In this document: piece after piece, positions 25,165 to 41,009 of the stretch
How positions within the stretch are numbered: the first letter of the stretch is position 1
Layout of the letters: the number at the start of each line of letters is the position of its first letter
IMG/VR virus record: IMGVR_UViG_3300031088_000737
Location: 117,271-181,270 of that record
Reading direction: 5' to 3' (one strand)
DNA length: 64,000 bases
DNA from: a virus
The notes under the pieces: model-generated
Database searches by the model: none
The model's input: only the letters and a program-made list of their open reading frames with translations
Told to the model about the DNA's origin: nothing
Made by a program: the position numbers and the translations under genes

Positions 25165-25626
25165 TTATACACACTGAAATTTCTTGGTGATTTGTTTCAC
25201 TTCTTCTTTGGTGCAAGGCCCAATACCGAGAGCGGTAATGATAGGAGAACCATCAAAGTGTGGTGGCAAAATATGACCTTGATCGACAATAATTGAACAT
25301 GGCAATCCCGCAGCAATAGCTTGGTTGTATGCTTTAATTAAGTGATCTTCATTTTTGGCTTTTAACGTAACCTTAGATCCGCCTGATTGACGATTTCTAT
25401 AGAGCTTAACGTTTTCTGGGTGCGATTCTTGTGCGTTTGTTAATGCATCCGTATAAGCGTGACCAGCTTGAGCTGCAAGCTTACCCGTTGGCATGTTTAA
25501 ATCGCCGCGAATAATTGAATAGATGTAGTAATGTGAGTCTTTGTCCGAAGGAACAAATTGAGTGTATTGGCTAAGAATAGCCTCTTTGGTGATGAAGTCG
25601 AATTCGTTATTATCAATCTACAACAT
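25165..25626 (-). CDS. pth2: Pth2-type peptidyl-tRNA hydrolase with an in-frame TAG at codon 3 (track ORF 25165..25494 lacks the first strand)
   Basis: YIYSIIRGDLNMPTGKLAAQAGHA, KVTLK, IVDQGH, TALGIGP; AAGGAG SD precedes ATG TTG TAG ATT GAT AAT. Confidence 0.85.
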
Positions 25627-38463: not shown

Positions 38464-38492
38464 TTGACTTTTTTTGAAAATAGGTTTATAAT
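38464..38492 (+). promoter_or_regulatory. Sigma70-type promoter driving the leader/attenuator
   Basis: TTGACT-N17-TATAAT. Confidence 0.85.
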
Positions 38493-38520
38493 TGAAAAAT
38501 ATTAAATAGGAATTTATTTT

Positions 38521-38562
38521 ATGAACATTCAATTAACTATAAGAGCCAGAGCGATATCTTAG
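38521..38562 (+). CDS. 13-aa leader peptide MNIQLTIRARAIS
   Basis: ATG AAC ATT CAA TTA ACT ATA AGA GCC AGA GCG ATA TCT TAG; AGGA SD 9 nt upstream. Confidence 0.75.
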   Translation: MNIQLTIRARAIS

Positions 38563-38655
38563 TGAGCTAATCTCATTGAGAGGGGTTAGCACACGCTAAA
38601 CCCTCTGGCAAACGAATGTGGAGCCTTTGAGGGTAATAACTCAAAGGCTTTTTTT
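38545..38655 (+). promoter_or_regulatory. Ribosome-mediated transcription attenuator (alternative hairpins)
   Basis: Mutually exclusive pairings among GCCAGAG, GCTAATCTC, GAGGGGTTAGC, GCTAAACCCTCTGGC, AGCCTTTGAGGGT and CTCAAAGGCT. Confidence 0.7.
38622..38655 (+). terminator. Attenuator intrinsic terminator
   Basis: AGCCTTTGAG-GGTAATAA-CTCAAAGGCT followed by TTTTTT. Confidence 0.9.
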
Positions 38656-38746: not shown

Positions 38747-38775
38747 TTGACAAAGGTGAAAAGAGTTGGTAAGAT
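38747..38775 (+). promoter_or_regulatory. Second sigma70-type promoter just upstream of the tRNA array
   Basis: TTGACA-N17-TAAGAT with an extended -10 TG. Confidence 0.7.
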
Positions 38776-38831: not shown

Positions 38832-38909
38832 GGGGGCACATGTTCCAAGGGATGGCGAGTTTGCCTTGCACGCAGACTGCGAAGAGTTCGATTCTCTTTG
38901 TCTCCACCA
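38832..38909 (+). tRNA. tRNA-Ala(UGC), atypical D arm
   Basis: G3:U70, loop CTTGCAC, TTCGATT T-loop, encoded CCA. Confidence 0.85.
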
Positions 38910-38950
38910 AATTTGTTGACTTGATGTGTTATAGAACAAACTTAAAATAT

Positions 38951-39025
38951 GGGCTGTTAGTTTAACTGGGAAAATACCTGCCTTGCACGCAGATGTTCAG
39001 AGTTCGATTCTCTGACGGTCCACCA
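38951..39025 (+). tRNA. tRNA-Ala(UGC)
   Basis: Cloverleaf, G3:U70, CTTGCAC, CCA. Confidence 0.9.
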
Positions 39026-39049
39026 GATTAGTTGTAGAAAGAGAATTAT

Positions 39050-39126
39050 GTCTGCGTAGCTCAGTTGGATAGAGCATCCGCCTTCTAAGCGGATGGTCGT
39101 TGGTTCGAATCCAACCGTAGACACCA
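39050..39126 (+). tRNA. tRNA-Arg(UCU)
   Basis: TCCGC-CTTCTAA-GCGGA, A20, CCA. Confidence 0.93.
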
Positions 39127-39146
39127 AATTAGATGTAACCAGATAT

Positions 39147-39221
39147 GGGCTGATAGTTTAACTGGGAAAACACTTGCCTTGCACGCAGGAGTTCAGAGTT
39201 CGATTCTCTGTCGGTCCACCA
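39147..39221 (+). tRNA. tRNA-Ala(UGC)
   Basis: Cloverleaf, G3:U70, CTTGCAC, CCA. Confidence 0.9.
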
Positions 39222-39238
39222 GATTTAAGTAATACAAT

Positions 39239-39313
39239 GGGGCTTTTAGTTTAACTGGCAAAACCTTGGGATTTCTCCTAAAGAATATGGTTCGAGTCCA
39301 TATAGCTCCACCA
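39239..39313 (+). ncRNA. tRNA-like RNA with an Ala acceptor (G3:U70, A73, CCA) and a TTTC tetraloop instead of an anticodon loop
   Basis: GGGGCT/AGCTCC acceptor, D arm GTTT/AAAC, TTGGGA-TTTC-TCCTAA, T arm TATGG-TTCGAGT-CCATA. Confidence 0.7.
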
Positions 39314-39328
39314 GTTTATAAGTTTCAT

Positions 39329-39405
39329 GGGCCATTAGTTCAGTTGGTAGAACGCCTGCTTTGCACGCAGGATGTCATGAGTTCAAATCTCATATGTGTC
39401 CACCA
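39329..39405 (+). tRNA. tRNA-Ala(UGC), one-base bulge in the acceptor stem
   Basis: CCTGC-TTTGCAC-GCAGG, G3:U70, CCA. Confidence 0.85.
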
Positions 39406-39422
39406 GTTTTAAAATTTTATAC

Positions 39423-39496
39423 GGGGTTTTAGTTTAACTATCGAAAAACAACAAGGAAACTTGTAAATGAAAGGTCGAAACTTTCAGACTCCACCA
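39423..39496 (+). ncRNA. tRNA-like RNA with an Ala acceptor (G3:U70, A73, CCA) and a GAAA tetraloop instead of an anticodon loop
   Basis: GGGGTTT/AGACTCC, GTTT/AAAC, ACAAG-GAAA-CTTGT, GAAAG-GTCGAAA-CTTTC. Confidence 0.8.
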
Positions 39497-39511
39497 AATA
39501 ATGTTTTTTAT

Positions 39512-39587
39512 ATTCTCATAGCTCAACTGGAAGAGCAATGACCTTCTAAGTCATCGGTTGTAGGTTCGAGTCCTACTGGGAATGCCA
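39512..39587 (+). tRNA. tRNA-Arg(UCU)
   Basis: ATGAC-CTTCTAA-GTCAT, G73-CCA. Confidence 0.9.
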
Positions 39588-39596
39588 AATTAGTTA

Positions 39597-39770
39597 GTTG
39601 ATGTTTCAACTGATTTAAACGCTACATGTTGCCTGATTAGCAACTAGTATACTGGTCAAGTATGATTGAAGCAGCTTAATCACTGCAGTCTGACCTCTGA
39701 TAAGTATATCCGGTAGGTATTTACCGTCACTTCGAAGCGTGGAGATATTTATTATCGTTGAAGCGTTAGC
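39597..39770 (+). ncRNA. Candidate multi-stem structured ncRNA
   Basis: 14-bp closing helix GTTGATGTTTCAAC/GTTGAAGCGTTAGC with several G-U pairs, enclosing about five hairpins. Confidence 0.6.
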
Positions 39771-39784
39771 GGAAATACTATTAT

Positions 39785-39859
39785 GGGCTGTTAGTTTAGC
39801 TGGGAAAATACCTGCCTTGCACGCAGGAGTGCTGGGTTCGAGTCCCTGACGGTCCACCA
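39785..39859 (+). tRNA. tRNA-Ala(UGC)
   Basis: CCTGC-CTTGCAC-GCAGG, G3:U70, CCA. Confidence 0.9.
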
Positions 39860-39871
39860 GTTTTGTTGTTT

Positions 39872-39948
39872 GTCCGTGTAGCTCAGTTGGATAGAGCGTC
39901 TGCCTCCTAAGCGGAAGGTCGTAGGTTCAAATCCTATCACGGACGCCA
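39872..39948 (+). tRNA. tRNA-Arg(CCU)
   Basis: TCTGC-CTCCTAA-GCGGA, CCA. Confidence 0.93.
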
Positions 39949-39978
39949 GTTTTGATATTTTATTTAGAGGATTAATCA

Positions 39979-40512
39979 ATGGTAATTGCTTATGTGGCAC
40001 CTTTGTTAAAAGATGATTATATTAACGCAACCGCTGATAATAAAACTATTAAAGAAAGTCATGATATTCGTGAAAAAATTGTAGCTCGCTCTCTTTATGT
40101 ATTTGATAAAATTGCTGAGTTGTTGAATTTAAAATATAATTGGGTTGCTTTTGATACTATTGATTTAGAAAAATATCAAGGTGCCGATAACGGAGAATAT
40201 GATTATCAGCGTTATTTTGAAACGTTTAAATTTTATAGTGATATTGACGAATTAGAATATAAAAATAAAATTATTGATGTTTATTGTAATCAATTTCCAT
40301 CAAGTTTTATTTATGAAGAATTTGAAGATGAAGTTCTTGGAACGGCTGAATCAATTAAGCTAGGTATTGATTTAAAAAAAGAAAGAGCAGATAGAAAACG
40401 AAAACATGATAAGGATAAAGAAAAAGAACGCAATAAGATTAGACCAGAAGTAATAGCTTCTATTAAATCTAAATTGAGTGAATTAGAATTATCTTTTGTT
40501 GATTTTAAATGA
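39979..40512 (+). CDS. Hypothetical protein embedded in the tRNA array
   Basis: GAGG SD, 177-aa ORF, basic coiled C-terminus. Confidence 0.75.
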   Translation: MVIAYVAPLLKDDYINATADNKTIKESHDIREKIVARSLYVFDKIAELLNLKYNWVAFDTIDLEKYQGADNGEYDYQRYFETFKFYSDIDELEYKNKIIDVYCNQFPSSFIYEEFEDEVLGTAESIKLGIDLKKERADRKRKHDKDKEKERNKIRPEVIASIKSKLSELELSFVDFK

Positions 40513-40593
40513 TTTAACAAAGAATAAGGGAGTTTTACTGTAAAGGTGAAACTGGATTGGAGCCGTGGTTTCCGGGGGGCATTCATTCACTAT

Positions 40594-40670
40594 GGGATTT
40601 TAGCTCAGTTGGTTAGAGCATCCGACTCATAATCGGCAGGTCGTAAGTTCAAGTCTTACAAGTCCCACCA
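40594..40670 (+). tRNA. tRNA with CAU anticodon, probably Ile2 (lysidine; reads AUA)
   Basis: CCGA-CTCATAA-TCGG anticodon arm resembles gammaproteobacterial Ile2; the Ile2 versus Met call is inference. Confidence 0.8.
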
Positions 40671-40686
40671 AATTAGATGTGTATAT

Positions 40687-40761
40687 GGTTCTGTAGCATA
40701 ACGGTAAATGCACCCCGCTCATAACGGGATGATTAAGGTTCGATTCCTTGCAGAACCACCA
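40687..40761 (+). tRNA. tRNA with CAU anticodon (Met or Ile2)
   Basis: CCCG-CTCATAA-CGGG, paired G1-C72, CCA. Confidence 0.85.
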
Positions 40762-40764
40762 GAT

Positions 40765-40893
40765 AGTAGAAAGGTAGCTTAACGGGAGAGCAGCCGGGAT
40801 GACCCGGTAACTTTAAATCTCATGTCAGATAAATTCTCGTAATTTATAGGCCATGTGGATAGTGGTAATGGTTCGAATCCATTGCTTTCTACT
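40765..40893 (+). ncRNA. Extended tRNA-like RNA (tetraloop anticodon arm plus a ~55-nt multi-hairpin insert; no encoded CCA)
   Basis: AGTAGAAAG/CTTTCTACT, D arm GCTT/GAGC, GCCGGG-ATGA-CCCGGT, T arm AATGG-TTCGAAT-CCATT. Confidence 0.7.
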
Positions 40894-40901
40894 TGCATTT
40901 T

Positions 40902-40977
40902 GGGGTTGTAGTTCAGTTGGTAGAACGCTTGTATGGCATACAAGAGGTCGTGGGTTCGAATCCCATCTTCTCCACCA
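40902..40977 (+). tRNA. tRNA-Ala(GGC)
   Basis: CTTGT-ATGGCAT-ACAAG, G3:U70, CCA; two U-U mismatches in the acceptor stem. Confidence 0.85.
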
Positions 40978-40982
40978 AATAT

Positions 40983-41009
40983 AAAGAGAACTTTCGAGTT
41001 CTCTTTTTT
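40983..41009 (+). terminator. Terminator ending the tRNA operon
   Basis: AAAGAGAACT-TTCG-AGTTCTCTTTTTT. Confidence 0.9.

Follow-up and report, generated by a model that had tools for sequence, protein, structure and literature searches.

A probably selected, non-decoding tRNA-Ala mimic with a sealed anticodon-position arm in the tRNA array of an IMG/VR record

The 64,000-nt stretch of viral DNA analysed here (the window) forms the end of a 181-kb IMG/VR record (IMGVR_UViG_3300031088_000737, positions 117,271 to 181,270; classed as a provirus, 31% GC). At positions 39423-39496 of its plus strand, inside a tRNA array, lies a 74-nt unit shaped like a tRNA-Ala, in which the arm at the anticodon position is sealed into a hairpin without an anticodon. 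We consider it highly probable that this unit is a selected, non-decoding tRNA mimic with an alanine frame, belonging to the same operon as decoding Ala, Arg and CAU tRNA genes (the decoders). The best explanation as a whole, to which we give a probability of roughly 0.4, is that of a selected non-decoding RNA, derived from tRNA-Ala, which acts as a decoy or sponge. Phage tRNA genes are currently attributed either to a need for codon supply or to the evasion of anticodon nucleases, and both explanations presume decoding. The present unit would be a tRNA-shaped, probably alanine-accepting RNA that is selected despite its inability to decode.

Structure of the mimic

The mimic folds into a closed four-helix cloverleaf of 21 pairs. 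Its 7-bp acceptor is formed by the 5′ strand GGGGTTT (39423-39429) and its partner AGACTCC (39486-39492), and includes G3:U70 as well as U6:G67. The D arm (39432-39449) consists of the stem GTTT/AAAC and a 10-nt loop, AACTATCGAA, which has no GG; the numbering within this non-canonical loop is uncertain, including that of the minor determinant G20 of alanyl-tRNA synthetase (AlaRS). At the anticodon position stands the sealed middle arm, ACAAG-GAAA-CTTGT (39451-39464), a 5-bp stem capped by a GNRA tetraloop. The variable region is AAAT, and the T arm GAAAG-GTCGAAA-CTTTC (39469-39485) carries A51:U63 in its stem and G54, U55 and C56 in its loop. The unit ends with the discriminator A73 and an encoded CCA (39493-39496). 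All of these elements are on the plus strand. An earlier note, made by a model from the letters of the sequence, had described the unit in just these terms (cloverleaf, G3:U70, A73, CCA, a 5-bp arm capped by GAAA, a D loop without GG, G54 and A51-U63), and its description is correct in every detail.

The RNAfold structure of the mimic (-16.5 kcal/mol) contains its acceptor, middle and T helices; the z score of -2.1 is modest alone. Compared with an ordinary tRNA, the unit has the four-helix cloverleaf and lacks the canonical elbow as well as the 7-nt loop with U33 and an anticodon triplet. ARAGORN makes no call on 39423-39496, and the Rfam tRNA model RF00005 gives no overlapping match there, either at the gathering threshold (29 bits) or at E <= 10. 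No tmRNA was found by ARAGORN in the window or in the 181-kb record, and the mimic itself is a closed 74-nt cloverleaf.

Conservation of the sealed arm

Orthologues of the mimic are present in five other array lineages, on metagenome contigs between 8 kb and 1.5 Mb long, with one copy per array. They were reached in two ways. Homologues of a 177-aa open reading frame (ORF) embedded in the window's array led to contigs with homologous arrays, and a joint 5′/3′ pattern of the mimic retrieved more of them from the JGI metagenomes. The resulting set comprises six distinct sequences, called family A below, which are related to each other; the statistics drawn from them are supportive and do not constitute a formal test. 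An unchanged copy of the window's unit is found in five further assemblies.

In each of the six sequences the middle arm is sealed. Next to ACAAG-GAAA-CTTGT in the window, the arms read TTGAG-GCAA-CTCGA (L080:7462-7535), CTGGG-GAAA-CCCGG (L082:535-605), CGA-GTCAA-TCG (L063:3246-3318), CGA-TTTAA-TCG (L067:33-105, with an identical sequence in L083) and CCGGG-GTTAAA-CTCGG (L068:3490-3565). The caps are therefore 4, 4, 4, 5, 5 and 6 nt long, and a 7-nt anticodon loop occurs in none of the six. As RNA they are GAAA, GCAA, GAAA, GUCAA, UUUAA and GUUAAA, so the GNRA type accounts for three of the six and the others have 5-6 nt. Outside the middle arm, the D loop has no GG in five sequences, the exception being L082 with GG in a 7-nt loop; the T loop has G54 in all six, retains U55, and retains C56 in five.

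The helices of the six-sequence alignment (21 pairs in 4 helices) have standard pairs in 98.4% of their pair cells, compared with 29-57% in a control in which the partners were slid by 1-3 columns. Changes on both sides of a pair are seen in five pairs: 5:68 of the acceptor (UA four times, CG twice), 50:64 of the T stem (UA three times, AU twice, CG once) and three of the five pairs of the sealed arm. The T helix is 100% paired, and the sealed-arm helix is paired in 92.9% of its cells. The D helix is the only one without a compensatory change; its pair 10:25 is G:C in three sequences and G:U in three. None of 500 column shuffles reached the observed covariation score, and RNAalifold independently arrives at these four helices. 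The covariance model R1, based on the six sequences, gives the family members 85-98 bits (97.9 bits for the window's unit) and ordinary tRNAs at most 49 bits over 273 kb of arrays, with one member per array.

A more detailed comparison can be made with L080, the closest relative. The decoders of the two arrays are mostly 96-100% identical (two of them 84% and 91%), and the frame of the mimic, which differs at 4 of 55 positions, is 93% identical. In contrast, the middle 19 nt of the mimic show 7 differences (63% identity), a value near that of the spacers between tRNA genes (60%). Despite these changes in the middle arm, all five pairs are kept and the cap is still of the GNRA type (GAAA changed to GCAA). 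Since pairs and cap are kept while the sequence changes at a spacer-like rate, the shape of the sealed arm appears to be under selection. These data support the view that its shape is selected and its sequence is not, or, alternatively, that the sequence is under diversifying pressure; six sequences do not separate the two.

The relatives in five lineages keep the sealed design, which suggests a selected look-alike rather than a broken tRNA. The earlier note had called the unit designed rather than decayed, and this judgement is borne out by its maintenance in six lineages, by the compensatory pairs and by the lack of 7-nt loops. The same note had named the case that could have overturned its view, namely a deletion unique to this copy among relatives with ordinary loops; instead, all five other lineages are likewise without a 7-nt loop and have compensatory changes in their stems. 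Its proposed search for tetraloop-capped genes with compensatory changes did bring up sealed arms and compensatory pairs, although a tetraloop is present in only three of the six. The GAAA tetraloop as such cannot be upheld as a conserved feature: it is one variant of a sealed cap, and the cap is what is conserved.

Alanine identity, elbow and T stem

The bacterial alanine determinants are A73, G2-C71, G3.U70 and G4-C69 (PMC9976931). This acceptor set, to which the earlier note had pointed, is invariant in all six family-A sequences, as are G1:C72 and the encoded CCA. A73, G2:C71, G3:U70 and G4:C69 are also invariant in all five sequences of a second alanine-frame family (family B, described below). 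Because the weak wobble G3:U70, a single transition away from G:C, is kept in 11 of 11 sequences, the pattern argues that alanine identity itself is under selection; an invariant G3:U70 would be less likely if any helix sufficed. According to PMC9976931, which cites Francklyn and Schimmel (1989), AlaRS charges minihelices and microhelices without an anticodon, an acceptor-T helix with G3:U70 being enough. It is therefore a reasonable inference, by analogy with these minihelices, that the mimic could be charged by AlaRS, an enzyme that ignores the anticodon.

In the T stem, position 51:63 is A51:U63 in five mimics and G51.U63 in one, whereas the neighbouring decoders have G51:C63. The same kind of T-stem change marks the non-proteogenic tRNA-Gly of Staphylococcus aureus with weak EF-Tu binding (PMC7826273). 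The parallel with this tRNA that the earlier note had drawn from the window's copy thus extends over the family, with either A51:U63 or G51.U63 in place of the G51:C63 of the decoders.

Possible function

The reading that we favour, a decoy or sponge, would work as follows. The mimic would be cut out of the transcript by RNase P and 3′ processing, like the neighbouring tRNAs, and would be charged by AlaRS without an anticodon. Its changed elbow (no G18G19; G54) together with A51:U63 would keep it off EF-Tu and the ribosome. It may then tie up a host factor that recognizes tRNA-Ala by its body or acceptor end, for example a tRNase of a defence system or an enzyme modifying the acceptor end. The decoding tRNA-Ala copies of the same operon would thereby be spared, and the mimic itself could not be cut in an anticodon loop. 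The role as such, a decoy or sponge with the body of tRNA-Ala and without a cleavable anticodon loop, is proposed tentatively and is possible rather than probable. A bacterial Schlafen defence nuclease reportedly cleaves both tRNA-Ala(UGC) and tRNA-Met(CAU) within the anticodon arm (PMC13056530).

The presence of a second alanine-frame family with the same pattern in the same arrays speaks for a decoy or sponge. The surroundings may do so as well: repair ligases, aminoacyl-tRNA synthetases, the peptidyl-tRNA hydrolase-type gene PTH2 and five diverged Ala(UGC) copies would fit an element engaged in a conflict over tRNAs. Several points weigh against a decoy or sponge. RNase P or AlaRS might be hampered by the altered elbow. 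Since the mimic has no anticodon loop, anticodon nucleases that recognize bases of that loop would not bind it, and a decoy could therefore work only on factors that recognize the tRNA body or its acceptor end. If the mimic can be charged, it would draw AlaRS away from the decoders, and this is hard to reconcile with a role in their rescue. The 177-aa ORF is absent from L080, where the mimic is present. Finally, the sample is small, six distinct but related sequences.

The mimic might instead be a decaying, functionless pseudo-tRNA left by the birth-and-death turnover of the array. Such arrays do gain and lose copies (L080 lacks one Ala copy and has another one added) and contain other degenerate units, and the mimic fails both ARAGORN and Rfam. 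A decaying copy would hardly be expected in six lineages with 98.4% of pair cells paired and compensatory changes in all helices except the D helix, with a frame that is 93% identical where spacers are 60% identical, and with no pair lost between the window and L080 in a middle arm that changes as a spacer does; these findings go most of the way to refuting the explanation, which we consider very improbable. A cis-acting module of the polycistronic transcript, i.e. an entry point for RNase P or RNase Z or a spacer for folding or stability, with no function in trans, would account for the position of the mimic, always inside the array and in one copy each, and for a middle arm that conserves shape and not sequence. 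The Bacillus cereus tRNA-Other provides a precedent as a tRNA-like module within a larger RNA (PMC3399842). However, the neighbouring tRNAs have their own processing sites, so that extra punctuation seems needless, and such a module gives no reason for an invariant G3:U70, A73 and CCA in six family-A and five family-B sequences. We regard it as unlikely.

Two further alternatives take the alanine identity at face value. As an alanine carrier for non-ribosomal transfer, the mimic would be charged by AlaRS, evade EF-Tu and pass alanine to a wall, lipid or protein transferase, as tRNA-Gly does for the Fem enzymes. The invariant acceptor set and CCA agree with such a carrier, and A51:U63 and the lost D-loop GG parallel the non-proteogenic tRNA-Gly (PMC7826273). 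On the other hand, known carrier tRNAs retain the anticodon loop, no gene resembling a transferase is conserved next to the arrays, and no gene for FemAB, the MprF C-domain or AlaRS was found in the 181-kb record, which is part of a genome and leaves room for a host enzyme. Since none of the three is encoded there, the donor idea gains nothing from the local genes, and it seems to us improbable. A regulator of Ala-tRNA supply, through titration of AlaRS or through feedback on leader-peptide control, could make use of the intact alanine identity set, and upstream of the operon there are indeed a terminator-like hairpin and a conserved leader ORF containing codons for Ala, Arg and Ile. Yet titration of AlaRS needs no sealed arm, and the effect would be to the detriment of the decoders, which share the transcript; the chances of this alternative appear slim.

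If the reading as a decoy or sponge is correct, large phage-like elements may encode a class of mimics that can be aminoacylated and cannot decode, with a constant body and alanine identity and with a sealed arm evolving freely or under drive. Released from a stress-induced decoder operon, these RNAs could serve as nuclease-proof sponges against tRNA-targeting immunity or against another factor that binds the tRNA body. This generalization is speculative, and we would not put it above a possibility. In a sense, the mimic, placed beside five Ala(UGC) decoders, repair enzymes and synthetases, would add a further layer to the conflict over tRNAs, be it as decoy, carrier or regulator. It also offers a concrete object of study: the identity elements of this 74-nt RNA are defined, nature supplies six variants of it, and a second family follows the same principle.

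Comparison with known systems

Canonical bacterial and phage tRNA-Ala (RF00005) shares with the mimic the 74-nt four-arm cloverleaf, the 7-bp acceptor, the alanine set, CCA and the location in a tRNA operon. The D arm of the mimic (GTTT...AAAY) is also common to decoding Ala(UGC) genes of the same array and of other phages. Unlike a canonical tRNA-Ala, the mimic has no 7-nt loop, U33 or anticodon, has G54 instead of T54, and is without G18G19 in five of the six sequences.

The tRNA-like domain of tmRNA is likewise an alanine acceptor with G3:U70, an altered D region and no anticodon decoding. The mimic differs from it in having no mRNA-like domain, tag ORF or long P2 helix; an arm is present at the anticodon position and is sealed, and the unit is free-standing and of tRNA size. 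The staphylococcal non-proteogenic tRNA-Gly species (NP1-3) are diverted from translation and resemble the mimic in a T stem of the weak EF-Tu type, including A51-U63, and in changed D and T regions (PMC7826273), but they keep the UCC anticodon loop, carry glycine and have FmhB, FemA and FemB as partners. The pseudo-tRNA tRNA-Other of B. cereus is tRNA-derived, non-translational and has taken another role (PMC3399842); in contrast to the mimic, it is a single chromosomal gene within a larger regulatory transcript and has no alanine identity, array or sealed arm. The alanine minihelices and microhelices that serve as AlaRS substrates are laboratory constructs, whereas the mimic is a natural, full-size and conserved gene. 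A full-text search of the literature found no paper describing such anticodon-less tRNA mimics.

The tRNA array and its control signals

The array that contains the mimic spans 38834..40977 (plus strand), as delimited with ARAGORN, Rfam and the homologous arrays of relatives. It comprises five diverged Ala(UGC) genes, one Ala(GGC), two Arg(UCU), one Arg(CCU), two CAU genes, several odd units and a probably structured spacer of 197 nt. The mimic is located 18 nt downstream of a tRNA-Ala(UGC) and 15 nt upstream of a tRNA-Arg(UCU).

Upstream of the array, on the same strand, a promoter-like site (an 11/12 promoter match), a short leader ORF and a 12-bp hairpin with a T run occupy 38464..38651. 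A second promoter-like sequence, TTGACA-17-TAAGAT with TG, stands directly before the array (38747..38775, plus strand), and a terminator-like hairpin closes it (40983..41006, plus strand). The leader ORF of the window encodes MNIQLTIRARAIS, and its codons AGA, GCC, GCG and ATA match decoders of the array. ORFs at the same place in L080, L063 and L068 have R-A-R-A-I or I-A-R-A-R-I cores. The leader ORF, the hairpin and the T run together resemble an attenuator of the tRNA operon that acts through a leader peptide. Because this conserved ORF is rich in Arg, Ala and Ile codons, its sequence suggests that the operon is induced when charged Arg, Ala and Ile tRNAs run short.

The first tRNA-Ala(UGC) of the array (38834-38909) has an aberrant D arm and scores 30.8 bits with Rfam. 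An alignment of 87 bases, which takes in a few flanking ones, shows it to be 97.7% identical to the annotated tRNA-Ala of the Pseudomonas phages VCM, Kremar and Psxphi15. Other tRNAs of the array are 88-95% identical to tRNAs from unrelated phages, and it looks as if single tRNA genes are exchanged between very different phages. The orthologous tRNA-Ala genes at 39329-39401 in the window and at L080:7374-7446 are 84% identical and differ in their anticodons, UGC and GGC, respectively. The spacer that separates Arg(UCU) from Ala(UGC) at 39590-39784, about 195 nt long, is for the most part shared with L080 and L070 and nearly identical there over some stretches, compared with roughly 60% identity for ordinary spacers; it probably represents a further structured RNA of the operon. 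A further tRNA-like unit, 40768-40891, contains an insert of about 50 nt and has no encoded CCA; its RF00005 score under permissive filters is 31.9 bits, and the unit is also conserved in L080.

The element and its other genes

Besides the array described above, the record carries a second one of eleven tRNA-Leu genes and a Gln gene. It also encodes AspRS, a class I aminoacyl-tRNA synthetase, RtcB, asparagine synthase and PTH2. RtcB (G000:C1:8791-10227, L085) and a three-domain fusion of an AAA_33 kinase, a metallophosphoesterase and a T4 Rnl1-type ligase (Pnkp-Rnl1; G000:C1:95908-98259, L089) form a set for the repair of tRNA breaks, and AspRS, the class I synthetase and asparagine synthase are encoded near this set. 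PTH2 (PF01981, E = 6.6e-21) is found on the minus strand of the window at 25165-25494, 14 kb from the mimic, with no R1 hit nearby. Neither a capsid nor a terminase family is among the 25 listed of the 59 matched PHROG families. Some genes (UvdE, Fpg, Ogt, AsnB, the synthetases and PTH2) hint at a giant virus of eukaryotes. This possibility was rejected: a Shine-Dalgarno core is found upstream of 57% of the ORFs, compared with a background of 4%, which points to prokaryotic translation.

The embedded 177-aa ORF lies within the array at 39979-40512. Its homologues are 54-72% identical, and the values are 54-66% in the three mimic lineages that carry the ORF, a rough guide to their divergence. 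The AlphaFold2 model of the protein is poor (mean pLDDT 58.5), and scans with protein patterns gave no match in the GTDB species genomes or the JGI metagenomes. A 437-kb phage with a 51%-identical copy of this ORF contains no family-A unit. The exact protein is also on record from contigs as long as 1.86 Mb, and the contigs with its relatives measure 0.6, 1.04 and 1.54 Mb; the loci concerned are L068, L072, L082 and L083.

Family B and other closed-arm units

The family-B unit of the window (39239..39313, plus strand) is an alanine-frame tRNA-like unit with G3:U70, a canonical elbow and a closed middle arm. ARAGORN reports it as 'tRNA-???' with a 2-nt anticodon, and it scores 35.5 bits with Rfam. 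Its acceptor is similar to that of Escherichia coli, GGGGCUU...AGCUCCACCA. Between the window and L080 the frame differs at 1 of 56 positions and the middle at 7 of 19. Across five lineages the frame is nearly invariant, the acceptor and T stem show compensatory changes, and the middle cannot be aligned. In L063, the loop of the family-B unit can still be read as a 7-nt UGC loop.

Outside the homologous arrays, exact-pattern scans of IMG/VR with the 3′ half and the 5′ half of the mimic returned nothing or chance matches within coding DNA. The joint 5′/3′ pattern retrieved no family member among viral contigs and, across the GTDB genomes, only an unrelated 84-nt unit. The sole blastn match among GenBank phages, an AT-rich sequence upstream of gene 31 in RB69-like phages, was dismissed as chance. 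A 17-nt motif of the D arm led to 43 IMG/VR loci, which are mostly ordinary phage tRNA-Ala genes or chance matches. A 48-kb IMG/VR contig of an unrelated lineage has an alanine-frame unit (L007:10148-10219) with the same D arm and a closed arm CTCAG-ACGT-CTGAG; it is without an encoded CCA and scores 26.7 bits with R1.

Another kind of tRNA-like unit is found between two Ala(UGC) genes at L063:3422-3487 and L067:205-275. It is closed as CTGGG-CGATA-CCCGG (CCCAG in L067) and has a short T-like hairpin, without G3:U70 and without CCA. Finally, an 84-nt tRNA with an alanine-type acceptor (G3:U70, A73), to which ARAGORN assigns the anticodon UUA, was seen on the minus strand at L078:1934-2017, L079:6978-7061 and L084:5301-5384, in two metagenome contigs and one contig binned in a gammaproteobacterial metagenome-assembled genome. 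This tRNA may be an alanine-inserting ochre suppressor.
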